Shown: positions 1 through 37,624 of the stretch, piece after piece
Position numbering within the stretch: the first letter of the stretch is position 1
Layout of the letters: each line of letters starts with the position of its first letter
Assembly (NCBI GenBank): GCA_947054505.1
Contig: CAMRWU010000010.1
Coordinates: forward strand, 1,893 to 65,892
Source: an uncultured Pseudomonadota bacterium
Lineage (GTDB): Bacteria > Pseudomonadota > Alphaproteobacteria > RF32 > CAG-239
DNA: 64,000 bases
Direction: 5' to 3'
Position numbers and translations under genes: made by a program
Notes under the pieces: generated by a model
Seen by the model: only the letters and a program-made list of their open reading frames with translations
What the model was told of the DNA's origin: nothing
The model's database searches: none

Positions 1-1
1 C

Positions 2-109
2 ATTAAGAAACTCTCTTCAGTTCAGTTGCCGATGCCTGCCGGTTTGAAAAAAGTTGATGAACCTGTTGCAGTTAAAGCTGAGGCTGAAGCTCCAGCTGAT
101 AATGCATAG
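2..109 (+). CDS. rplC: 3' end of 50S ribosomal protein L3 (partial, runs off window start)
   Basis: Open frame IKKLSSVQLPMPAGLKK...APADNA* ending at TAG 107-109, directly upstream of rplD; identity inferred mainly from S10-operon gene order. Confidence 0.6.
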   Translation: MKKLSSVQLPMPAGLKKVDEPVAVKAEAEAPADNA

Positions 110-126
110 TATAAAGGATTGAAATT

Positions 127-747
127 ATGAAACAGGACATCTTGAATTTAGATAATAAAAATGTTGGTTCTATCGAACTCGACGAATCGATTTTCGGTTT
201 GGAAGTTCGTCCTGACATTTTACACCGTGTTGTTACCTGGCAATTGGCCAGATTGCAGTCCGGCAACCACAAAACCAAAGGTCGCTCTGAAGTTGCTTTG
301 ACACCGGCTAAGCCGTTCAAGCAAAAAGGCGGCGGTCGCGCTCGTCAGGGTTCTCGCAAGGGTACTCAGTTCCGTAAGGGTGGCGTTGTTTTTGGTCCGG
401 TTGTTCGTGATCATTCTCATGAGCTGACCAAAAAGTTCAGAAAGCTCGGTTTGAAGACTGCTCTTTCTGCTAAAGCCAAAGAAGGTAATTTGGTTATTGT
501 TGATGAAGCAAAACTGTCTGCTCCGAAAACTAAAGATTTGCAAAACAAATTGGTAGCTTGCGGTTTGACAAACAGCTTGTTCATTGACGGTAAAGAAGTT
601 GACGTTAATTTTGCATTAGCAACCAGAAATATCATTGGTGTTGACGTTTTGCCGACTATCGGTGCCAACGTTTATGACATCTTGAGAAAAGACAAACTCG
701 TGTTGACTAAAGATGCAGTTGTTTGCTTGGGAGAGAGATTGAAATGA
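127..747 (+). CDS. rplD: 50S ribosomal protein L4
   Basis: Motifs [32 protein letters not shown]; operon order. Confidence 0.98.
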
Positions 748-1061
748 GCAAATCTAAAAAAACAAACAATGTAACTGCTAAAATGTACGACACTCTCGTA
801 CGTCCGGTTATTACTGAAAAATCTATGATTTCTTCAGAAGCCGGTAAGGTTACTTTTTTAGTTCCTTTGTCTGCTTCAAAAGATGACGTTAAAGCTGCTG
901 TCGAAAGCATTTTCAACGTTACAGTAAACAAGGTAAATACAATTCGTCAATTCGGTAAGGTAAAACGCTTTAGAGGTTATCTCGGACAACGTTCAGATTT
1001 CAAAAAAGCTGTTGTTACGCTTGCTGAAGGCCAAAATATTGATGTTACAACAGGAATTTAA
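744..1061 (+). CDS. rplW: 50S ribosomal protein L23
   Basis: [19 protein letters not shown]; likely start ATG 744 in ATGA overlap with the rplD stop. Confidence 0.97.
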
Positions 1062-1064
1062 GAC

Positions 1065-1901
1065 ATGGCATTGAAAAATTTTAAGCCCACATCTCCTGGA
1101 CTTCGTCAGCTCGTTATCGTTGACAGAGGCGAGCTCTATAAAGGTAAACCGGAAAAAACTCTGACAATCGGTCTGACAAAAACCGGTGGTCGTGATAACT
1201 TCGGTCACGTTACAAGTCGCAGAATTGGTGGCGGTCATAAACGCAAACTGCGTATTATTGACTTCAAACGCAATAAATTTGACAACGAGGCTACTGTCGA
1301 GAGAATCGAATATGATCCTAACCGTTCAGCTTTCATCGCTTTGATTAGCTATGAAGATGGCGAAAAGGCTTATATTTTGGCTCCGCAAAGACTGAAAGCC
1401 GGCGATAAAGTTATCTCTTCTAACAAAGCAGATATTAAGCCGGGTAATGCTATGCCTCTTAAAAATATGCCGGTCGGTACCATTATCCACAACGTTGAAC
1501 TGCGTGCAGGCAAAGGCGGCCAATTGGTTCGTTCTGCCGGATGTTATGCTCAACTCGTTGGTAAGGATGCCGGTTATGCTCAGTTGAAACTGAACTCCGG
1601 TGAATTAAGGGTTGTTCGTGAAGAGTGCTTGGCTACTGTCGGTGCTGTTTCCAACCCTGACAACCAGAACGTATCACTTGGTAAGGCTGGTCGCAATCGT
1701 TGGCTAGGTAATCGCCCGGTTTCCCGTGGTGTTGCTATGAACCCGGTTGATCACCCGCACGGTGGTGGTGAAGGTCGTACTTCCGGCGGTCGCCATCCGG
1801 TTACTCCTTGGGGTAAACCGACTAAGGGTGCTAAAACTCGTACTAATAAAAAGACGGATAAATTCATTATGAGAAGCCGTCATGACAACAAAAAGAAATA
1901 A
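1065..1901 (+). CDS. rplB: 50S ribosomal protein L2
   Basis: [25 protein letters not shown]. Confidence 0.99.
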
Positions 1902-1913
1902 GGAGAAACGCTA

Positions 1914-2192
1914 ATGACACGTTCCGTATGGAAAGGGCCGTTTGTTGATGGCTATCTTCTCAAAAAAGCTGAAGCAGCTAGAGCTTCCAGCCGTAATGAA
2001 GTGATTAAAATCTGGTCACGTCGTTCTACAATGTTGCCGCAGTTCGTCGGATTGACTTTCGGCGTTCACAACGGTCACAAATTTATCCCTGTATTGGTTA
2101 CTGAGGATATGGTTGGACACAAGTTTGGCGAGTTTGCTCCGACACGTACATTCTACGGTCACGCTGCAGACAAAAAGGCTAAGAGAGGTTAA
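1914..2192 (+). CDS. rpsS: 30S ribosomal protein S19
   Basis: [23 protein letters not shown]. Confidence 0.99.
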
Positions 2193-2569
2193 TGATGAGT
2201 AAAGCTAAAGATGCAAGAAGAGTAGAAGCAAATGAAGCTTTGGCTGTTTGCCATTCTATTCGCACCAGCCCTCGCAAGCTGAATCTGGTAGCTCAGTCAA
2301 TTCGCGGTTTATCAGCCTCTAAGGCTATTGCTGAATTGAGCTTCTCTAAAAAGAGAATTGCAAAAGTTGCTTTGAGCGTTTTGCAGTCAGCTATCGCCAA
2401 TGCTGAAAACAATCACCAGTTGAACATCGATAAGCTTTTTGTTAAAGAAGCTTTCGTGGGCAAGGGTTTGGTAATGAAACGTATGCACGCTCGCGGTCGC
2501 GGCAGAGGGGCTAGAGTTTTGAAGCCTTTCTCTAACATGACTATCGTCGTTGCAGAGTGCGGGGAGTAA
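2192..2569 (+). CDS. rplV: 50S ribosomal protein L22
   Basis: [25 protein letters not shown]. Confidence 0.98.
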
Positions 2570-2574
2570 ATTAA

Positions 2575-3246
2575 ATGGGACAGAAAGTAAATCCTATCAG
2601 TCTTCGTTTGGGAGTTAACCGTACTTGGGATTCTCGTTGGTATGCCGACGATGAAAAATACGCTGACTATCTCCTTGAAGACGTCAAAATCAAAGAATTC
2701 TTGAAAGAGAAATTGGCTCAGGCTGGTATCAGCAGAATCGTTATTGAACGTCCTGCTAAAAAAGCCAGAGTTACAATTCACTCTGCAAGACCGGGGGTTG
2801 TAATTGGTAAAAAAGGTCAGGATATTGAAAATCTCCGTAAGGAAATTCAGAAATTGACTGACTCTGAAGTTCAATTGAACATCTTGGAAGTTAGAAAACC
2901 GGAGCTTGATGCAAAATTAGTTGCAGACAGTGTTGCTCAGCAGTTGGAACGCCGTGTTGCTTTCCGTCGTGCTATGAAACGCGTTATGCAGTCAGCTTTG
3001 CGTTTGGGTGCTGAAGGTATTAAGGTTAGCTGTTCAGGCCGTTTGGGCGGTGCTGAAATCGCTAGAACAGAATACTATCGTGAAGGTCGCGTGCCTTTGC
3101 ACACTCTGCGTGCTGACATTGATTATGCAACCTCTACGGCTCACACAACTTATGGTGCTTGTGGCGTTAAGGTGTGGATCTATAAAGGCGAAATTATGGC
3201 TCACGATCCAATGGCACAAGACAAGAAGTTGGCTGAACAAAAATAA
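2575..3246 (+). CDS. rpsC: 30S ribosomal protein S3
   Basis: [21 protein letters not shown]. Confidence 0.99.
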
Positions 3247-3263
3247 GAGTGAGGTTTTAGAAA

Positions 3264-3692
3264 ATGTTAAGTCCAAAAAGATTAAAGTTCCGCAAGCAGC
3301 ATAAAGGCCGTATTCACGGTGATGCTAAAGGCGGTTACAGCTTGAGCTTTGGTTCATATGGTCTGAAAGCTTTGTCTCCGGAACGCATTACAGCTCGCCA
3401 GATTGAGGCAGCTCGTCGTGCTATCACTCGTGAGATGAAGAGAGCAGGTCAGTTGTGGATCCGTATTTTCCCAGACGTACCGGTTTCTGATAAACCAGCC
3501 GAAGTTCGTATGGGTAAAGGTAAAGGTTCTGTTGAGTTCTGGGTAGCTCGCGTTCATCCGGGTCGTATCATGTTTGAATGTGACGGTGTTGATGAGGCGG
3601 TTGCGCGTTCAGCGTTTGCGTTGGGTGCTGCAAAGCTTCCGGTTAAGACCAAGTTCGTTAAAAGATTGAATTCAGAGCAAGGAGCAGAATAA
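3264..3692 (+). CDS. rplP: 50S ribosomal protein L16
   Basis: [24 protein letters not shown]. Confidence 0.99.
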
Positions 3693-3889
3693 TGGTAAAA
3701 ACTAAAGATCTTCGTGCTATGAGTATTGATGAGCTTGAAGCTAAATTGATCGAATGCAAAAAAGAACAATTTAACTTAAGAGTACAACAATCCACTGGAC
3801 AATTGCAAAATACTGCGGTATTAAGAAGCGTCCGTCGTGAAGTAGCAAAAATCAACACGCTCATTGCTGAGCGCAAGAAGAATAGTTAG
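3692..3889 (+). CDS. rpmC: 50S ribosomal protein L29
   Basis: [17 protein letters not shown]; operon order. Confidence 0.97.
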
Positions 3890-3900
3890 GAGAAAAGACT

Positions 3901-4137
3901 ATGCCTAAAAGAATTCTTCAAGGTGTTGTTGTTAGTGATAAACAGGACAAGACAGTTGTCGTTAGTGTAGAACGTCAAGTTATGCACCCTGTTTATAAGA
4001 AATTCATCAAGAAGAGCAAAAAATATGCCGCTCATGATGAAAACAATCAGTTCAAAGTCGGCGATATTGTACGTATTCAAGAATCCGTACCTTATTCAAA
4101 GACCAAATGCTGGACTGTGATCGTTGATAACGCCTAG
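3901..4137 (+). CDS. rpsQ: 30S ribosomal protein S17
   Basis: [24 protein letters not shown]. Confidence 0.98.
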
Positions 4138-4174
4138 GAGTTAACTGTTTTTGCTGATGGGGGCGATTTAGGGG

Positions 4175-4203
4175 TTGCCAGACGTGTAATTTTCTGGTAT
4201 AAC
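4175..4203 (+). promoter_or_regulatory. sigma70-type promoter of the spc operon
   Basis: TTGCCA (4175-4180), 17 bp, TATAAC (4198-4203), followed by GC-rich sequence, upstream of rplN. Confidence 0.75.
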
Positions 4204-4261
4204 TCTCCGGTCGCTCCTGCAAAGCAGGGACAGAAACTAAAATAAGAAAAGGAATTAAAAA

Positions 4262-4630
4262 ATGATACAGATGCAAACCAACCTAGATGTAGCCGACAAT
4301 TCTGGCGCGCGTCAGGTGCAGTGCATTAAAGTTCTTGGCGGGTCCAAGAGAATGCATGCTTCTGTTGGCGACGTTATTGTAGTGTCCGTTAAAGATGCTA
4401 TTCCAAAGGGTCGTGTTAAGAAGGGGGATGTTTTGAAGGCTGTTATTGTTCGTACAGCTTCTGACATCAGACGCAAAGACGGATCAGTTATCCGTTTTGA
4501 TAAAAACGCTGCAGTTCTTATCAATAAGGACGGCGAGCCTATCGGTACTCGTATCTTCGGCCCCGTTACCAGAGAATTGCGTGCAAAGAAATTTATGAAA
4601 ATTATTTCATTAGCACCGGAGGTATTATAA
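4262..4630 (+). CDS. rplN: 50S ribosomal protein L14
   Basis: [20 protein letters not shown]. Confidence 0.99.
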
Positions 4631-4947
4631 TGCCTAAATTGAAAATTAAAAAGGGTGACCAAGTTATCGTGTTGTCTGGTGACGACAAGGGTAAAACTGG
4701 TGAAGTAGTAAAATCAATGCCGAAAGAGGGTAAAGTGGTTGTTCAGGGTGTCAATTTGGTTAAAAGACACACTAAACCCAGCCAGACAACTCCGGGCGGT
4801 ATTGTTACTAAAGAAGCGCCGATTAATGTTTCCAACGTAGCCGTTGTTGATCCGAAATCCGGTAAAGCAACAAAAATCGGTTATAAAGAAGTTAACGGAA
4901 GCAAAGTGCGCGTTGCTCGCAAATCCGGTGAAGTAATCGATAAATAG
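4630..4947 (+). CDS. rplX: 50S ribosomal protein L24
   Basis: [20 protein letters not shown] (KOW motif), EAPINVSNV. Confidence 0.98.
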
Positions 4948-4958
4948 GAGAAAAATTT

Positions 4959-5498
4959 ATGGCAAATTTTGAAAACCTTTACAATGAGGTCATAAAAAAA
5001 TCTCTTGTGGAAAAATTCGGTTACACCAACCCACATGAGATTCCGAAGTTGACTAAAATTGTTCTGAACATCGGTGTTGGCGATGCCGTTACCGATAAGA
5101 AAAAACTGAACAATGCTGTTGACGAATTGGCTTTGATCGCCGGTCAAAAACCGGTTGTTACCAAAGCTCGTAAGTCTATCGCAACTTTCAAATTAAGAGA
5201 AGGCATGCCGATTGGTTGCAAGGTTACTCTGCGTTCTACAAGAATGTATGAATTCCTTGAAAGATTGATCAATATGGCTTTGCCGCGCGTCAGAGACTTC
5301 CATGGTATTAGCGGCAAGAACTTTGACGGCAAAGGTAATTTTGCTTTCGGTATCAAAGAACAGATTATCTTCCCTGAAATCAACTATGATAAAGTTGAAA
5401 ACATTCGCGGTATGGACATCTGCATTTGTACTTCTGCAAAGACTGACGAAGAAGCTAAGGCTCTTCTGACCGGCTTTAACCTTCCTTACAAGAAATAA
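4959..5498 (+). CDS. rplE: 50S ribosomal protein L5
   Basis: [22 protein letters not shown]. Confidence 0.99.
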
Positions 5499-5513
5499 GC
5501 GGAGATTTAAACT

Positions 5514-5819
5514 ATGGCAAAAACAAGTTCAGTTTACAGAAACTTGAAAAGAGCTAAAATGGCCGAGAAGTTTGCTTCCCGCCGTAACAAGCTCAAAAAG
5601 ATAGTTATGGATAAAACAATCTCTCCGGAAGAGAGATTCCAAGCTACTTTGAAATTGGCCGAGATGCCGCGCAATTCTGCAAAAATCAGATTTAGAAATC
5701 GTTGCAAATTGACAGGTCGTTCTCGTGGTGTATATCGGAAATTCGGTCTGGCTCGTGTTGAATTGAGAGACATGGCTAGCTTCGGTGAAATTCCGGGTTT
5801 GGTTAAATCAAGCTGGTAG
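5514..5819 (+). CDS. rpsN: 30S ribosomal protein S14 (long, non-zinc type)
   Basis: RNRCKLTGRSRGVYRKFGL, GEIPGLVKSSW; 101 aa, no CxxC pairs. Confidence 0.98.
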   Translation: MAKTSSVYRNLKRAKMAEKFASRRNKLKKIVMDKTISPEERFQATLKLAEMPRNSAKIRFRNRCKLTGRSRGVYRKFGLARVELRDMASFGEIPGLVKSSW

Positions 5820-5831
5820 GAGATAAAGATA

Positions 5832-6230
5832 ATGTCTATGTCTGATCCTTTGGGCGATATGCTCACACGCATTAGAAACGCACAAAGAGCAAAGAAGAGT
5901 GAAGTCGTATCACCTGCTTCTCGCTTGCGTGAAAATGTTTTGGAAGTTCTGAAGAAAGAAGGCTATATTGGCGGTTATGAACGTGTAAATGTTCGCCAAG
6001 GCGTTGATGAACTTCGTATTCAATTGAAGTATCATGAAGGTACTTCCGTAATTACTGAAATCTACCGTGTTTCTACTCCGGGTCGTCGCGTTTATTCGAG
6101 CGTTAAAGATTTGCCGAGAGTTTATAACGGTCTTGGTATTTCCATTATTTCTACACCGAGTGGTGTTATGAGCGATAACGAAGCTCGTAAAGCCAATGTC
6201 GGCGGCGAAATTTTGTGCCAGGTATTTTAA
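5832..6230 (+). CDS. rpsH: 30S ribosomal protein S8
   Basis: [30 protein letters not shown]. Confidence 0.99.
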
Positions 6231-6242
6231 GGGAGAAAATGG

Positions 6243-6782
6243 ATGTCTAGAGTTGGTAAATATCCGGTTATCGTCCCCGAAGGTGTTACGGTTTCCATTA
6301 ACGGCAATTTGGTTACAGCTAAAGGTAAATTGGGCGAATTGAGCCACAGTTTCGATGCTGATCATGTTACCGTTGAAATGAGTGAAAACAAGATTGTTGT
6401 TTCTCCTAAAGCTGAGACCAAACAGGCTCGCGCTTTGTGGGGTACAACCAGAGCTAACATTAACGTTCTTGTTAAAGGCGTTCATGATGGCTTTACAAAA
6501 AATTTAGAGTTAGTTGGTGTGGGTTATAAAGCCCGTGTAGAAGGCAGCAACAAACTGGTATTGTCTTTAGGTTTTTCTCACGATGTTCCTGTCGTTGCTC
6601 CTGAAGGTTTGAAAGTTGCATGCCCGTCTCCGACCCAAATCAGCATCTCTGGTGCGGATAAACAACTTGTCGGTCAATTTGCCGCGGAAGTTCGCAAATT
6701 CAGAAAACCTGAGCCTTACAAAGGTAAAGGCGTGAAGTATGAAGGCGAATACATCCGTCGTAAAGAAGGCAAGAAGAAATAA
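6243..6782 (+). CDS. rplF: 50S ribosomal protein L6
   Basis: [17 protein letters not shown]. Confidence 0.99.
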
Positions 6783-6794
6783 GGATTAAAGTAA

Positions 6795-7157
6795 ATGAAT
6801 ACGCCAAGAGATTTATTTCAGAAAAGAAAAAGTCGCGTCAGATCTGCTTTGAAAAAAGTTGCAAACGGCAAAATGAGATTGTCTGTTTTCCGCAGCGGTA
6901 AGCATATCTATGCGCAAATTATCGACGATGCCAAAGGCGCTACTGTCGTTTCTGCTTCTACTTTGGATAAAGAAGTCAGAGAAAACATCAAAAAGTCTTC
7001 TACAGTTGAAGCAGCAAGCTTCATCGGAAAAGTTGTTGCTGAACGCGCAGTTAAGACCGGTGTTAGCGAAGTTGTCTTTGACAGAGGCGGTTACATCTAT
7101 CACGGTCGTGTTAAGGCTTTGGCTGATGCAGCTCGTGAAGCTGGTTTGAAATTCTAA
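6795..7157 (+). CDS. rplR: 50S ribosomal protein L18
   Basis: [30 protein letters not shown]. Confidence 0.99.
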
Positions 7158-7167
7158 GGAGATGAAA

Positions 7168-7737
7168 ATGGCACAACAAGTTGCTGATCGTCGTAATAAG
7201 ACAGAAAAGAAAGATGAATTGGTTGAAAAATTAGTTCATATCAACCGTGTTGCCAAGACCGTTAAAGGCGGACGCACAATGTCATTTGCTGCCGTTGTCG
7301 TTGTTGGTGACCAGAAAGGCCGCGTTGGTTATGGTACAGGTAAGGCTTCTGAAGTTCCTGAAGCTATTACTAAAGCTACTAACGAAGCAAAAAAGAATAT
7401 GGTTCGCATTCCGCTTCGCGAAGGCAGAACACTGCATCATGATATTGCCGGTCGTTTTGGTGCCGGTAAGGTATTCTTGAGAACAGCTCCTGCCGGTACC
7501 GGTGTTATTGCCGGTGGTCCGATGCGCGCAATCTTTGAAGTTCTGGGTGTTCAGGACGTCGTTGCTAAGTCAATGGGTTCTAACAATCCGTACAACATGA
7601 TTAAAGCGACATTTAATGCTTTGGAAGCTATCAATTCTCCGCGCATGGTTGCTGCTAAACGCGGCAAAAAAGTCGGTGATATTGTTAGCCGTCGTGAAAA
7701 TACCGCTAATGCCAAAATGGCTATCGAGGAGGCTTAA
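7168..7737 (+). CDS. rpsE: 30S ribosomal protein S5
   Basis: [21 protein letters not shown]; start chosen after the AAGGAG ribosome-binding site. Confidence 0.98.
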
Positions 7738-7739
7738 TC

Positions 7740-7928
7740 ATGGCTACAAAGAAAACTATTAAAGTTACCCAAATCGGAAGTTCTATCGGACGTCCGGAAA
7801 GTCAGAAAGCAACTTTGGTTGGGCTTGGCTTGAACAAGATGCACAAAGTTTCGGTTTTGGAAGATACTCCGGCCGTTCGCGGAATGATCAGAAAGGTGGC
7901 TCACCTCGTTAAGGTTGAAGAAAATTAG
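7740..7928 (+). CDS. rpmD: 50S ribosomal protein L30
   Basis: [23 protein letters not shown]. Confidence 0.98.
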
Positions 7929-8057
7929 AGATTGCAAAAGGTGTGTCATGCTTGGAATTTTATCGCTCGTGTAACTAGATGTACACAACGCTCTAAAATT
8001 TCGGCGTAGCACACCCCTCTATCAATCTCTTAACTCAAGAATTTTAAGGTGAATAAT

Positions 8058-8516
8058 ATGAAACTTAATGAAATTAAAGATAACGAAGGCGCTAGAAAGT
8101 CTCGCAAACGCGTAGCTCGCGGTATTGGTAGCGGTTCTGGTAAAACCGGCGGGCGTGGTCAAAAAGGTCAGAAGTCTCGCTCCGGTGTTGCTATCAACGG
8201 TTTTGAAGGCGGTCAGATGCCGATTTACCGTCGTTTGCCGAAACGTGGTTTCAAAAATCCGTTTGCTAAAGTTTTTGCAGTCGTTAATTTGGATACAATC
8301 CAGAAGGCTGTTGATGCTGGTAAATTGAACGCTTCAGACATTACAATCGACGCTTTGATGAGTGCCGGTATTGTCAGCAAGAAATTGGACGGTGTCCGTT
8401 TGTTGGCTCGCGGCGCGATTACTTCCAACGTTAACATCAGTGTTAACTCCGCTTCCAAAGCAGCCGTTGCGGCTGTCGAGAAAGCCGGCGGCAAGGTTAA
8501 TGTTGTAGAAGCTTAA
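8058..8516 (+). CDS. rplO: 50S ribosomal protein L15
   Basis: [34 protein letters not shown]. Confidence 0.98.
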
Positions 8517-8532
8517 TTCGAAAACGCTTTTG

Positions 8533-8570
8533 AAAAGGCTGTTTGATTGAAAAGTCAAACAGCTTTTTTT
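8533..8570 (+). terminator. Intrinsic terminator after rplO
   Basis: GCTGTTTGA/TCAAACAGC stem followed by a T7 run. Confidence 0.8.
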
Positions 8571-8693
8571 GTTATTTTTTTAGTTAAATGCATAATTTAG
8601 TTGAATAAAAAATTTTTTAGTGTAAATATTCTAACCAAAGGGACTAAATCGTCCCTCGTTGTTTGTTTTAAATAATAGATTAAGGATGTAAAA

Positions 8694-10043
8694 ATGGTTT
8701 CATTAGCAGAGAAAATGGCTGCGAACTTGGATATGTCAGCCTTCGGTAAAGCTGAAGAACTAAAGAAAAGATTGTGGTTTACCGTTTTGGCTCTGATTGT
8801 GTTCCGCTTGGGCACATTCATTCCGTTGCCAGGGATTGATCCGAAAATTTTGGCTGAAATTTTTGCCAGAAATTCAGGCGGTATCCTTGGTATGTTTAAT
8901 ATGTTTGCCGGTGGTGCGTTGGAACGTATGACCATCTTTGCTTTGAATATTATGCCATATATTTCGGCCTCCATTATCATTCAGCTCGGACAGTCAGTGA
9001 TTCCGTCTTTGCAGGCGCTGAAAAAAGAAGGAGAGGCCGGACATCGTAAGGTTACTCAGTATACGCGTTATTTGACGGTTTTGATTACGATTGTTCAAGG
9101 TTATGGAATCGCCGTCGGTTTGGAAGGAATGACCGGAAGTGCCGGTTTATCCGCCGTGTTGATGCCGGGCTTTATCTTCCGCTTTACAACAATTGTTTCC
9201 TTGGTTGGCGGTACAATGTTTATCGTTTGGTTGGGTGAGCAAATCACAAAACGCGGTGTGGGTAATGGTTCTTCGTTAATCATTACGGTTGGTATTATTG
9301 CTAATATTCCGTCAGCATTGGCTCAGACATTTGAGTTGGGACGTGTCGGTTCGATGTCCGCTCCGGTTATTTTGATGCTGATGGCTATGGTTTTTGCTTT
9401 GATTTACTTGATTGTTTTGGTGGAGCGTGCACAACGCAAAATCACCATTCAATACCCGAAGCGTCAGGTTATGGGCAGAATGGGTGCCAGTGAAAGTTCT
9501 CACTTGCCATTGAAAATTAACCCGACCGGTGTGATTCCTCCGATTTTTGCAAGCTCTCTGTTGTTGTTGCCGATTACAATTGCAAACTTTAGCGCAGAAA
9601 GCGGTCCGGCATGGGTTCAGAATTTGAGCCAGATGTTGAGTCATGGGCAACCTTTGTATTTGGGTTTGTATGCTTTCTTGATTGCATTCTTTGCGTTCTT
9701 CTATACTGCGATTGTTTTTAATCCGGAAGAAACAGCTGACAATCTGAAAAAGCACGGTGGCTTTATTGCCGGTATTCGTCCGGGGAAAAATACTGCTGAA
9801 TATCTGGATTATGTTATTACTCGTTTGACGGTTTTGGGTGCCGTTTACTTGGTCGGTTTGTGCATTTTGCCGGAAGTTCTTATCAGCAAGTTGTCTGTTC
9901 CGTTTGTATTGGGTGGTACAACATTGCTCATCGTTGTGCAAGTGACAATGGATTTTGTTGGTCAGTTACAGTCTCATTTGATTGCTTATCAGTATGAATC
10001 TCTGATTAAAAAAGCATCTTTGGCGAATCGGAAGAAACGTTAA
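8694..10043 (+). CDS. secY: Preprotein translocase subunit SecY
   Basis: IFALNIMPYISASII, WLGEQIT..GVGNG.SL, GVIPPIFASS, IAGIRPG; about 10 hydrophobic segments. Confidence 0.99.
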   Translation: MVSLAEKMAANLDMSAFGKAEELKKRLWFTVLALIVFRLGTFIPLPGIDPKILAEIFARNSGGILGMFNMFAGGALERMTIFALNIMPYISASIIIQLGQSVIPSLQALKKEGEAGHRKVTQYTRYLTVLITIVQGYGIAVGLEGMTGSAGLSAVLMPGFIFRFTTIVSLVGGTMFIVWLGEQITKRGVGNGSSLIITVGIIANIPSALAQTFELGRVGSMSAPVILMLMAMVFALIYLIVLVERAQRKITIQYPKRQVMGRMGASESSHLPLKINPTGVIPPIFASSLLLLPITIANFSAESGPAWVQNLSQMLSHGQPLYLGLYAFLIAFFAFFYTAIVFNPEETADNLKKHGGFIAGIRPGKNTAEYLDYVITRLTVLGAVYLVGLCILPEVLISKLSVPFVLGGTTLLIVVQVTMDFVGQLQSHLIAYQYESLIKKASLANRKKR

Positions 10044-10044
10044 G

Positions 10045-10716
10045 ATGAATAAAAACGGATTAGGTCTGCATATCGTTTTTACCGGAGCTCCCGGTTGTGG
10101 TAAAGGAACTCAGGCGCGCTTGTTGAAAGAACGCGTTGCCATTCCTCATTTGTCAACCGGTGAGATGCTTCGTGCCGAGGCGGCCAAAGGGACACCTTTG
10201 GGGCTTGAGATTAAAGCTTTGATTGATGGTGGTAATCTTGTTTCTGATGAGATGATTATTAAAATGTTGTCTCAACGAATCGATGAGGATGATTGTAAGA
10301 ACGGTTTTATTCTGGATGGTTTTCCTCGGACTTTGCCTCAGGCTGAAGTTTTGGAAGAGATGCTGGCTAAAAAAGGGATAACCCTGGATGCTGTTGTTGA
10401 AATTCAGGTTCCTGATGAAATCATTATGGAGCGAATTTTAGGGCGATATGCTTGTATGTCTTGCGGTCAAGGGTATCATGATAAGTTTCAAAAGCCTAAG
10501 ATGTATGGTGTTTGCGATAATTGCGGCGGAACGGATTTTTATCGGAGAATCGATGATAATCGAGCAACAGTGCAGAATCGTCTGGTCAATTATCGGGCTC
10601 TGACATATCCGACAATTCCTTATTTTGAGCAAAAGGGATTGTTGCGTTGTGTGGATGGTACAGGTTCAATTGCGGCGGTGTCTAAGAAAATTGATGATTT
10701 GTTGGCTGTCGCCTGA
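10045..10716 (+). CDS. adk: Adenylate kinase with Cys4 metal-binding LID
   Basis: GAPGCGKGTQ, HLSTGEMLR, LDGFPR; LID CMSC...CDNC. Confidence 0.98.
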   Translation: MNKNGLGLHIVFTGAPGCGKGTQARLLKERVAIPHLSTGEMLRAEAAKGTPLGLEIKALIDGGNLVSDEMIIKMLSQRIDEDDCKNGFILDGFPRTLPQAEVLEEMLAKKGITLDAVVEIQVPDEIIMERILGRYACMSCGQGYHDKFQKPKMYGVCDNCGGTDFYRRIDDNRATVQNRLVNYRALTYPTIPYFEQKGLLRCVDGTGSIAAVSKKIDDLLAVA

Positions 10717-10829
10717 ATTTTTATGTTTCAATTTTCCGAGTCTTTTGAATGGATTGGGAATAAGAGGTAAGAAAAACGTTAATTTTTTGAAAAAAATGCG
10801 TTTTTTCAGAATTTTTATGAAATCTGAGG

Positions 10830-10857
10830 TTGACACTCGTGAAATTTAGCCTATAAT
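10830..10857 (+). promoter_or_regulatory. sigma70 promoter of the alpha operon
   Basis: TTGACA (10830-35), 16 bp, TATAAT (10852-57), followed by GC-rich CCGGC (stringent-type discriminator). Confidence 0.85.
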
Positions 10858-10927
10858 CCGGCTTAATTTTGAAAAGTGGTGATCAACTTTTTAAATGTAA
10901 TCATAATCTATAAAATGGAGAGTTAAT

Positions 10928-11296
10928 TTGGCTCGTATAGCTGGTGTAAATATTCCAACTGCCAAGAAAATTGAAGTCGCATTGACTTACATCTATGGCA
11001 TTGGTCGCAAAACTGCTCAAGACATTTGTTCCAAATCCGGTATTTCCGGTGAACGCCGTGTTCATGAATTGAGCGATGAAGATGTTGCTAAAATTCGTGA
11101 AGTTATTGACAACGATGTCGTTGTTGAAGGTGAACTCCGCCGTGAGGTTGGCGTTAATATCAAACGCCTGATGGATCTCGGTTGCTACAGAGGCTTGCGC
11201 CATCGTAAAGGCTTGCCGGTACGCGGACAGAGCACAAAACAAAATGCTCGTACCCGTAAAGGTAAACGCAAAACTGTTGCTAATAAGAAGAAATAA
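10928..11296 (+). CDS. rpsM: 30S ribosomal protein S13 (TTG start)
   Basis: [21 protein letters not shown]. Confidence 0.98.
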
Positions 11297-11309
11297 GGTA
11301 GGTTGTTAA

Positions 11310-11702
11310 ATGGCAAAAGCAGTATCACAACGTGTTAAAAGGAAAGAAAAAAAGAATATTACGGCGGGTGTTGCTCACGTAAATTCTACTTTCAACAATA
11401 CAAGAATTACAATTACAGATGCTCAAGGTAATACTGTTTCTTGGGCTACCGCTGGTGCGCAGGGTTTTAAAGGTTCTCGTAAATCTACTCCGTATGCCGC
11501 TCAGGTTGCCGCTGAAGAAGCTGGTCGCAAGGCTCAGGAACATGGTATGAAAACTCTTGAAGTTGAAGTTAAAGGTCCGGGTTCAGGAAGAGAATCCGCC
11601 ATCAGAGCATTACAGGTTATCGGTTTTACCATCACAACAATCCGTGATGTGACTCCTATTCCGCACAACGGTTGTCGTTTGAGAAAAAGACGCCGCGTAT
11701 AG
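11310..11702 (+). CDS. rpsK: 30S ribosomal protein S11
   Basis: [25 protein letters not shown]. Confidence 0.99.
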
Positions 11703-11791
11703 TGTTTCTTTATGGAAAGTGAGGCTTTTAGAGCCTCACGTCTTTTCGTTTATAAAATTTGCATATGCACTAAAATTTAGAGGACATACCC

Positions 11792-12802
11792 GTGATTCAA
11801 AAGAATTGGCAAGAACTTATTAAACCAACAAATTTGGAAGTTACCCCTCTGGAAGGCGGTAATAAAGCCAAGATTGTGGTTGAACCTTTAGAAAGAGGCT
11901 TTGGCTTGACTTTAGGTAACGCAATCAGAAGAGTTTTACTCTCCTCTTTGCAAGGTGGTGCTGTTACCAGCATCAAGATTAACGGAGTCCTGCACGAGTT
12001 TTCTGTGGTTCCGGGTGTTAGAGAAGATGTTACCGACATCGTTCTGAATATTAAAGGTTTGGCCGTTGCTGTTCACAGCGAAGGTCAGAAGACTATGACT
12101 TTGAAGGCTGAAGGTCCTTGCGAAGTTACTGCCGGTATGATTGAAACCGGTCATGACGTTGAAATCAAAAATCCGGATTTGTTTATCTGCACATTGGATG
12201 CCGGTGCCAAAATCAATATGGAATTGACTGTTGGTACAGGTAAAGGTTATGTTCCGGCCGCTTTGAACAAATCTGCTGATTCTCCGATTGGAGTTATTCC
12301 GGTTGATGCGATTTATTCTCCGGTAAGAAAAGTTTCTTACAAAGTTGAGAATACCCGCGTTGGTCAGGCTACTGACTATGATAAATTGACAATGATTGTT
12401 GAAACCAACGGCGTTGTTACTCCGGAAGATGCTGTTGCATTCTCTGCTCGTATTTTGCAAGACCAGTTGAAGCCGTTCATCAACTTTGATGAGCCGGAAA
12501 ATGAGGTTGAAGTTGAGAAAGAAGAACTGCCGTTCAACAGAAATCTGTTGAAGAAAGTTGAAGAACTTGAATTGTCTGTTCGTTCTGCCAACTGCCTCAA
12601 AAACGATAATATTGTTTACATCGGTGATTTGGTTCAAAAGACAGAAGCTGAAATGTTGCGTACACCGAACTTCGGTCGTAAGTCTTTGAACGAAATTAAA
12701 GAAGTCTTGGCTAAAATGGGTATTCATTTGGGTATGGATACACCGGGTTGGCCGCCTGAGAATATTGAAGATTTGATTCGTCGTTGTGATGAACATTTCT
12801 AG
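11792..12802 (+). CDS. rpoA: RNA polymerase alpha subunit (GTG start)
   Basis: [46 protein letters not shown]. Confidence 0.99.
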
Positions 12803-35880: not shown

Positions 35881-36481
35881 AATAAGTTACAAAATCTTTT
35901 TTGAATATTTGTCGCCAAAGTTTTTGTGTCATTTCTTCAAGATTGTCGTAGGTTTCCGATACTATCGTCAGATTCAGCTTTTTTGCACGGGCCCGATGAA
36001 CAGGGCGAGAACGAAATTTGCAGACTTCGTTATGAGCCTTTTTTTCATCGAAAATCCATTTGTATCTTCCGGCAATGTAAACGTCTTCTTCAAAAAAATA
36101 GTGTTCGGAGACGGGAATGTCATTGATGAAACGTTTTTCGTATTGATAGCTCTGGTGTTCAAGTGTGAGCTTGGTCAGAAAATCGTTCCATTGAGAGGCC
36201 AAACGGAAATGAGAAATCAGTTCGGTGTCACCACAGGTGAGAAGATTGGTGATGAAGACATCATCATAAATTCTTGCGATGTGTGAACCGCTGTAGATTT
36301 CTCTTTTTTTGCAGAAGAAATAGCGTTTTCTGATTTGAGTACAGATTTGGGCAATCTGTTTGTTGGCGGGATGCAGTCGATGAAACCGTAGCAAGACGAT
36401 TTCTTCCGACGGCGAGAAACCAACGCGTTGCTTCTTTCTGAGTTCGCGGTAACGGCGAAACATCTTTAGAATATTTTTCAT
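35879..36481 (-). CDS. Hypothetical protein (200 aa)
   Basis: Longest ORF of the interval; upstream minus-strand TTGACA-17-GATACT; basic N-terminus. Confidence 0.7.
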   Translation of the reverse strand: MKNILKMFRRYRELRKKQRVGFSPSEEIVLLRFHRLHPANKQIAQICTQIRKRYFFCKKREIYSGSHIARIYDDVFITNLLTCGDTELISHFRLASQWNDFLTKLTLEHQSYQYEKRFINDIPVSEHYFFEEDVYIAGRYKWIFDEKKAHNEVCKFRSRPVHRARAKKLNLTIVSETYDNLEEMTQKLWRQIFKKDFVTY

Positions 36482-36559
36482 AAAATAATAGGGTTAATAG
36501 CTTATTTTGAGCGTCAGTATCGGCTTCTTATTTTTCTTTGTCAAGGCAAAATATGATAT

Positions 36560-36588
36560 AAAAAAAGCCGGTTGAAAAACCGGCTTTT
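36560..36588 (-). terminator. Terminator after rplQ
   Basis: AAAAGCCGGTT/AACCGGCTTTT stem with a long U tract on the minus strand. Confidence 0.85.
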
Positions 36589-36605
36589 GGAGAGTATCGC
36601 TAAAC

Positions 36606-37055
36606 TTATTTAGCTTCAGCATTGGCTTTTTCAACCTCAGCGGCAGCAGCTCTTTCAGCCGCAACACGTGCCAAGTCTTTAGCGCCTTTAGCGTTAACAT
36701 CACGGTCAACTAACTCAACGATAGCCATCGGAGCGCAGTCACCATAACGAATGCCGGCTTTCAGAACGCGAGTGTAACCGCCGTTACGGTCTTTGTAGCG
36801 TTCAGCCAATGTAGAGAAAAGTTTGGAAACAACTTCGTTATCACGTAAAAATGCCAAAGCCTGGCGACGGTTGTTCAACTGACCTTTTTTACCCAAAGTA
36901 ATCATGTTGTCAACGAAGGTTCTCAATTCTTTTGCTCTGGGAAGAGTAACTTTAATTTGTTCATGGGTCAGAACAGCAGCGGTCAGGTTAGAGAATAAAG
37001 CCTTGCGAGCGTTTGTGTCCATGTTCAATTTGCGATGTTTCATTCCATGTCTCAT
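36606..37055 (-). CDS. rplQ: 50S ribosomal protein L17 (stand-alone, outside the alpha operon)
   Basis: [41 protein letters not shown]. Confidence 0.99.
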
Positions 37056-37162
37056 GACATTTTCCTTTCTTTTCTCTGTGGCTTGCGGGGCAAGCCGTAT
37101 AAAACGCAGACTCACCACGGATTTGCACGGCAATCATGCATGAGTCCTTCCAATTCGAAGTG

Positions 37163-37191
37163 TTTCTAGCATATAAGATTCAGAAAATCAA
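37163..37191 (-). promoter_or_regulatory. Putative rplQ promoter
   Basis: Minus strand TTGATT (37186-91), 17 bp, TAGAAA (37163-68). Confidence 0.6.
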
Positions 37192-37291
37192 GCGATTTTT
37201 GCGAAAAGGGGAATTATTTTTTCCTGAAAAACTTGTATTTGCGCTCGGGAAGCATATCTCATTGCTATAATTCATTAGAGAGGAGAGAACC

Positions 37292-37624
37292 ATGTTAGTT
37301 GCAAAGACCAAAGATAATTTGAAAAAATGTAAATGTATGTCCTGTCCATCATACACATTGGGATGTAAGATTAAAAATATGCCGGAAAACATGTTTAAAT
37401 TGTTGGATGATTTGGACAATGTTGAGCATTATGAGTCGATGTTCTGTGCTTTTGAAAAAAGTCATTGTATTGATGAAGATCGCGGTTGTTTGTGTGAAAC
37501 TTGTCCCATTCATGCCGAATATGACCTGCATCGCGAAGACTATTGCATGAAAACCGGAGGAACACTGGCTCATAAGTGTTTGATGGGGTTTGATGACGCG
37601 GATGATGATTTGACAAAGCAATAA
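37292..37624 (+). CDS. DUF2769-like Cys-rich small protein
   Basis: CKCMSCPSY...MFCAFEKSHCI...GCLCETCPI...DYC pattern; GAGAGGAG ribosome-binding site; extended -10 TGCTATAAT. Confidence 0.7.
   Translation: MLVAKTKDNLKKCKCMSCPSYTLGCKIKNMPENMFKLLDDLDNVEHYESMFCAFEKSHCIDEDRGCLCETCPIHAEYDLHREDYCMKTGGTLAHKCLMGFDDADDDLTKQ

Follow-up and report, generated by a model that had tools for sequence, protein, structure and literature searches.

The rplQ gene of the window (the whole stretch of 64,000 nt analysed here) is preceded by a leader of ~105 nt that is under selection, occurs in single copy and travels with rplQ, not with rpoA. This leader is almost certainly a selected, structured cis element of rplQ. 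Our preferred reading, to which we assign a probability of roughly 0.6, is that L17 is its ligand and that its output is translational feedback on rplQ. This reading is based on the exclusive association of the element with rplQ through rearrangements, its single copy, its invariant wobble, bulge and single-stranded features, and a Shine-Dalgarno (SD) sequence that is open unless bound. In the order of transcription, the locus consists of the following features:

37186-37191, minus strand: -35 hexamer TTGATT, read from the sequence.
37163-37171, minus strand: extended -10 element TG-c-TAGAAA (TAGAAA at 37168-37163, TG at 37171-37170), after a 17-nt spacer from the -35 hexamer.
37147-37160, minus strand: P0, a small 5′ hairpin, CUUC-GAAUUG-GAAG, from the MFE fold.
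37108-37147, minus strand: hairpin P1, with an outer helix of 8 bp, a U.G pair, a bulge, CAUG/CGUG and an apical sub-hairpin.
37097-37107, minus strand: single-stranded linker ending in UUUUAUAC; the family consensus is UUUUAUCC, containing UUAUCC.
37080-37096, minus strand: hairpin P2, GGCUUGC-CCC-GCAAGCC (GGCTTGC at 37096-37090 with GCAAGCC at 37086-37080).
37063-37079, minus strand: A/G-rich unpaired spacer ACAGAGAAAAG and SD AAAGGA, conserved in sequence.
36606-37055, minus strand: rplQ (ribosomal protein L17, 149 aa), ATG at 37055 and TAA at 36608-36606.
36555-36588, minus strand: intrinsic terminator of rplQ, a hairpin at 36588-36563 (11-bp stem, 4-nt loop) followed by a T run, from the terminator scan.

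The product of the open reading frame is L17 (Pfam PF01196, E 1.4e-37), its N-terminus (MRHG...) agrees with that of relatives, and a search of the whole 1.49-Mb genome found no second L17 gene, leaving rplQ as a single copy. A TTG start further upstream, at 37133, which would lengthen the product to 175 aa, was discarded because the first residues of homologues are MRHG. The gene is monocistronic: it is the only one between its leader and its terminator, which begins 18 nt after the stop codon, and it is bordered on the 5′ side by a divergent DUF2769 gene (start at 37292) and on the 3′ side, beyond the terminator, by another gene with a promoter-like site of its own. The S10-spc-alpha cluster occupies positions 1-12802 of the plus strand and is intact as far as rpoA (11792-12802), which is 24 kb from rplQ and on the opposite strand. 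Because rpoA ends the cluster at 12802 and is followed by convergent genes, the first of them 57 nt beyond it, rplQ is truly detached from rpoA. The initial, sequence-only reading of this DNA, which had described a stand-alone rplQ with its own terminator behind a structured leader of ~100 nt, is borne out on these points, and the two stems that it named and the AAAGGA sequence are all present as written. Just 5′ of rpoA are two short open reading frames (10928-11296 and 11310-11702), presumably rpsM and rpsK, with no rpsD-sized open reading frame between them and rpoA. The closest loci are from metagenome-assembled genomes of uncultured gut and rumen Alphaproteobacteria, and the window's genus comprises dozens of species with genomes of 1.3-1.7 Mb.

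The TTGATT-17-TAGAAA promoter proposed in the same reading was likewise located on the minus strand. It was not among the sites listed by a simple consensus promoter scan, which missed it because the -10 hexamer ends in A, and its support comes instead from conservation in relatives. Most relatives in which rplQ is not tightly linked to rpoA possess cTTGCA or cTTGAT as -35 boxes at the same spacing, and relatives keep TGnTAGAAA, TACAAA or TATAGT 17 nt past the -35 box. Transcription would start ~5-8 nt downstream of the -10 element.

Because the window's leader by itself folds no better than shuffled sequences (z = -1.2), the case for its structure is comparative. The same architecture is found upstream of rplQ in 21 genus-mates and ~50 further family members. 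In a MAFFT alignment of 30 leaders, with a structure written by hand (12 pairs and one bulge in P1, 7 pairs in P2), 97.5% of cells were paired, versus 41-52% when the 3′ partners were slid by 1-3 columns, and compensatory double changes were found in 14 of the 19 pairs. A covariance model built from this alignment (R1) matched each of 71 family loci exactly once, and every match stopped at the rplQ ATG. When these 71 leaders were aligned together with a marginal one (L024), 95.6% of pair cells were paired, versus 39-48% when slid, and double changes were present in 16/19 pairs (P1, 9/12; P2, 7/7); the covariation across relatives that the sequence-only reading had proposed as a check is thus present in both alignments. 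Independently of the model, ViennaRNA partition-function folds of the 72 sequences gave mean pair probabilities of ~0.7-0.9 for P1 and P2, with P2 at ~0.9. Of the 151 genomes from the order that were searched in full with R1, 150 contained one match, including all 149 sampled genomes of the family, which span 19 genera. In the window's own genome, the single match is the leader of rplQ, and no other gene is preceded by the element.

The position of rpoA, which was located in all fetched loci, divides the family loci into groups of 13, 14 and 44. In the first group, rpoA lies 184-260 nt upstream of rplQ, with the P1-P2 leader in the spacer; one of these tightly linked loci (L005) belongs to a genus-mate whose L17 is 96% identical. 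In the second, rpoA is 345-2200 nt upstream on the same strand, at a distance of at least 566 nt in 11 of the 14, which leaves room for inserted genes. In the third, no rpoA lies within 1.5-2.5 kb. All loci of the latter two groups also carry the P1-P2 leader, and the element is found in monocistronic mRNAs as well as in polycistronic spacers that follow rpoA. A clear consensus promoter is present in only 1 of the 13 tightly linked loci, in 13 of the 14 intermediate ones and in ~35 of the 44 others; the rpoA-linked relatives that already possess one include L006, L015 and L019.

Since rpoA-linked relatives carry P1 and P2 too, the leader predates the relocation of rplQ in the window's genome, and since L006, L015 and L019 have a promoter, the promoter predates it as well among close relatives. 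The sequence-only reading had supposed that the leader arose after relocation to restore stoichiometry, a proposal that fails in view of the identical leader in the rpoA-rplQ spacers of sister species. Judging from these sequences, the leader descends from an ancestor whose rpoA-rplQ spacer contained it, and what moved in the window's genome was a whole, ready-made cassette of promoter, leader, rplQ and terminator. A covariance-model search of the window's own genome found no remnant of the leader behind rpoA. In these bacteria rplQ behaves as a self-contained cassette, able to leave an otherwise rigid S10-spc-alpha cluster while retaining its control element. Extra DNA of 0.57-2.2 kb separates rpoA from the rplQ cassette in L018, L021, L037, L038, L042, L044-L046, L051-L053 and L065, which suggests that this junction is a recurrent point of insertion or rearrangement in the family.

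Within the leader, P0 is poorly conserved and not kept across the family; a twin genome (L003) has CUCUC/GAGAG. In P1 of the window, the first stem pairs GACTCA (37146-37141) with TGAGTC (37114-37109) and is followed by the closing pair U37140.G37115, the bulged G37139, four pairs of CAUG with CGUG (37138-37135 with 37119-37116) and a variable apical sub-hairpin (37121-37134). Across the 72 leaders, the outer helix of P1 covaries freely. The first pair of the core is A:U in 63 and G:C in 9; next come a U.G pair (72/72) and one bulged base (G in 44, U in 18, A in 10), then a Y:R position (U:A in 43, C:G in 29) and the inner pairs A:U (72/72) and U.G (70/72). Neither U.G wobble is ever swapped for a Watson-Crick pair. 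The core is capped by a sub-hairpin of 13-21 nt in some leaders, the window's among them, and by a loop of 4-10 nt in the others; the two forms are clearly homologous. The AUCC of the linker has A in 72, U in 71 and C in 60-66 of the 72 leaders. After P2, the family-wide order is ACAGAGAAAA, SD and AUG; in the window, P2 ends 11 nt before the SD, and AAAGGA (37068-37063) lies 7 nt ahead of the ATG at 37055. An out-of-frame mini-ORF, AUG-UCA-UGA, at 37052-37060 of the minus strand overlaps the rplQ start (AUGUCAUGA), and the corresponding string ATGNNATG is found in 37 of the 72 leaders. It could be a start-stop element, but with just 2 nt between the SD and its first AUG it is probably unused.

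The terminator scan also flagged CGTGGTGAGTCTGCG plus TTTTATACGG as terminator-like, and in many leaders UUUU follows P1 by 3-6 nt, as might be expected if P1 and the U-rich linker formed a conditional terminator. However, the U run is A-rich in several leaders (e.g. L011 and L012, with AGGAAAAAUUAUCC), it is set apart from the stem, and a conserved antiterminator pairing was not found; we consider a transcription attenuator very improbable.

Fixed wobbles and a nearly invariant single-stranded AUCC are typical of protein recognition, and L17 is named as the ligand because rplQ is the only gene downstream. L17 is among the proteins that bind early to the large ribosomal subunit. When the 72 leaders were folded, the SD columns had a mean pairing probability of only 0.2-0.4. 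Because the RNA alone leaves the SD open, any repression would need a bound factor, most likely L17. We propose that L17 in excess over free 23S rRNA would bind P1 and the linker, that the bound protein, together with P2, would block or trap the 30S subunit on a ribosome-binding site that is otherwise open, and that L17 translation would fall as a result. Counting against this model, the P1 core is ~65-90 nt upstream of the AUG, which is far for simple steric competition. Thermodynamic folds of the 72 leaders contained no conserved alternative pairing that hides the SD. Sequestration of the SD by the linker or U run was also considered and discarded: the probabilities of pairing with the SD or A run did not exceed 0.08, and some leaders have an A-rich linker.

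That the SD is not sequestered would also be consistent with a role in mRNA stability or processing, in which the 5′ hairpins shield the rplQ message from 5′-end-dependent decay without L17 feedback and, in rpoA-linked genomes, might label a point of cleavage at which rplQ is uncoupled from rpoA. The hairpins are stable and near the 5′ end, and such a role would accommodate their presence in post-rpoA spacers and monocistronic mRNAs alike. Protective hairpins, however, require stability rather than sequence, whereas the two wobbles, the position of the bulge and the single-stranded AUCC are nearly invariant across 19 genera, and the element stands before no other gene in the genome. The near-invariant core and AUCC therefore argue for specific recognition and against a role in stability only, which we view as unlikely.

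Compared with the Rfam r-leader models, a check that the sequence-only reading had suggested, the leader matches no Rfam family. The whole window had no match at the gathering threshold, and a permissive Rfam 15 scan (E ≤ 10) of 36400-37400 gave nothing in the leader, all of its matches being on the terminator; related loci had no relevant match (20 searched at the gathering threshold and 6, of Rhodospirillales type, at E ≤ 5). Of the proposed new L17-responsive leader, the part that is borne out is a conserved, covarying structure that is found only with rplQ and has no counterpart in Rfam; its novelty after relocation is not supported, and its response to L17 is putative.

That L17 leaders have been proposed computationally, as the sequence-only reading also held, is correct: one predicted L17 leader, L17-Actino-Proteobacteria, exists in the literature, in other phyla (PMC7247131). 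It is composed of a variable 5′ hairpin and a conserved 3′ hairpin (PMC7247131), and the 10-nt loop ACCUG(A/G)(U/C)ACG lies between CCGGU and GCCGG (PMC7247131; published alignment and SS_cons). The rplQ leader described here is similar to it in its position immediately 5′ of rplQ, in its presumed ligand, L17 (rplQ being the only regulated gene), in having a variable 5′ hairpin and then a conserved hairpin, and in containing a U.G-closed helix, one unpaired base (usually A) and a C:G pair; CCGG-U-[A]-C...G-G-CCGG in the published motif compares with A-U-[N]-Y...R-G-U in P1. It differs in that P1 is topped by a variable short loop or by an inserted sub-hairpin, and in that a conserved linker and P2 are added before the SD. 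A regex search found ACCUG(A/G)(U/C)ACG as an apical loop in 0 of the 72 leaders, its five string matches being in the P1 3′ strand or the P2 loop, and because the 10-nt loop is absent, we have not filed the leader as a member of L17-Actino-Proteobacteria. The members of the published leader that we inspected are from Actinobacteria and from accessions that we take to be Myxococcales. A search of the supplement of PMC7247131 for alphaproteobacterial linker strings and Rhodospirillales names returned nothing relevant, and RF03129 and RF03122, considered as possible entries for the published leader, are in fact L31-Corynebacteriaceae, from the same paper, and a coronavirus UTR.

Two further RNA elements bear on rplQ. 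The L17 downstream element (RF01708) is structured and rplQ-associated and was proposed as an L17 feedback site, but it is found downstream of rplQ, in Lactobacillales and Listeria (Firmicutes) (Weinberg et al. 2010, PMC2864571). It has no structural likeness to the leader and is unrelated to it. No match to RF01708 was obtained with Rfam at the gathering or E-value threshold, and the 3′ UTR of rplQ holds only a plain terminator. In E. coli, the S4 operator of the alpha operon (RF00140, Alpha_RBS) exerts translational feedback on an operon that ancestrally ends with rpoA-rplQ. Feedback by a ribosomal protein may be common to this operator and the leader, but RF00140 is situated before rpsM, binds S4 and regulates rplQ only indirectly, whereas rplQ here has its own element. 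The only sub-threshold matches to RF00140 came from two Rhodospirillales loci, at a distance of ~2 kb on the 5′ side of rplQ and none at rplQ itself (L089:363-473, 28.8 bits, E 0.004; L091:357-463, 25.9 bits, E 0.02; gathering score, 38), where they presumably lie before rpsM.

The element is a 5′-UTR structure adjoining an r-protein gene and it covaries, two of the properties that characterize r-leaders; as a class, these are also expected to bind the encoded protein specifically, to repress the gene when that protein is in excess and, frequently but not necessarily, to resemble its rRNA site. We classify the element as a candidate r-leader for L17, with a structure that sets it apart from the published one. 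A literature search found neither another description of an alphaproteobacterial rplQ leader nor an experimentally proven L17 feedback site. With one occurrence per sampled family genome, heavy covariation and a nearly invariant wobble-bulge core, the leader is among the best-supported candidates for such a site.

What L17 might recognise in the leader was approached through its rRNA target. An assembled 23S rRNA was not found in the window's genome, and that of a genus-mate was therefore used for comparison. A leader sequence profile (nhmmer) had no significant match to this 23S rRNA, the best (E = 2.6) being elsewhere than helix 101, and the long-range pairs that a naive motif scan of it produced were all unconvincing. 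The base of helix 101, 5′-UAG-G-NNNN...NNNN-U-[A]-CUA-3′ (flanking helix, U.G, bulged A, C:G), is common to the Rfam bacterial LSU consensus, E. coli, the genus-mate and two other alphaproteobacteria, and its flanking helix shows compensatory changes (CCGG, CUGA/UCAG, CCAG/CUGG). The P1 core resembles this base in four features only, namely R:Y, U.G, a single bulged base and C:G in the same order. It is unlike helix 101 in the next pairs, which are U:A and A:U in the rRNA versus A:U and U.G in the leader, and in having the loop on the other side of the motif. The published L17 motif, CCGGUAC...GGCCGG, matches E. coli H101 in sequence as well. One paper describes bL17 as lying in a crevice whose borders are H47, H61, H100 and 'H10' as printed (PMC11354259). 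We tentatively raise the idea, which we ourselves find doubtful, that P1 imitates the conserved base of 23S helix 101 and that the published Actinobacteria/Myxococcales L17 leader has this module as its conserved centre. If this is true, rplQ mRNAs of at least three distant lineages would have acquired copies of one L17 recognition module, and the alphaproteobacterial leader would be an AU-rich, two-hairpin version of it. The possible link of the leader to helix 101 and to the published L17 motif offers a concrete model of L17 recognition that can be checked. A separate resemblance involves the P1 3′ strand (CCGUGGUG/A, 37109-37122), in which 7-10 nt are identical to the 5′ strand of helix 100 (CCGUGGUAGA) of the genus-mate (L113). 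This identity (CCGUGGUA) was discarded as mimicry, because ~16 shared 7-mers are expected, making it a chance-level match, and because the pairing partners differ.

The assignment of L17 solely from rplQ being the only downstream gene, and the lack of a statistically supported rRNA match, would suit a different protein ligand, e.g. a ribosomal protein other than L17 or an RNA-binding regulator that acts globally. Against this, the motif occurs once per genome, which is a poor fit to a global regulator, and stays with rplQ through every rearrangement; we judge such a ligand quite improbable, and retain L17 as the preferred one.

Outside the family, R1 searches without filters returned weak matches (E 0.04-9), all of them right before rplQ (L024, L025, L089, L091, L093, L096 and L100). 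Seven Rhodospirillales-type rpoA-rplQ spacers, from records that name Magnetospirillum, Terasakiella and Caenispirillum, have a common layout of rpoA terminator, small hairpin, U.G-closed bulged hairpin, AUC linker, 7-bp hairpin and SD; as in the family, AUC is found right before P2. A model built from the Rhodospirillales-type leaders (R2) matches 6 of 150 sampled alphaproteobacterial families, a count that includes genome G205. Of these matches, the five that were read (G205 not among them) are all just upstream of rplQ, four ending at the start codon and the fifth ~40 nt before it. Related forms thus adjoin rplQ in other alphaproteobacterial families, which also speaks against a leader born of the relocation, and their presence in culturable Rhodospirillales-type bacteria makes the leader testable there. 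Rhodobacterales-type rpoA-rplQ spacers (L090, L101, L107 and L111) contain a different conserved block, CCGGGCAAUCCCGCCCCAAGGAG ... GGACAAAGCAUAAA, which has no Rfam match at the gathering threshold; it lies ~120-200 nt upstream of rplQ and may be yet another lineage-specific rplQ leader.
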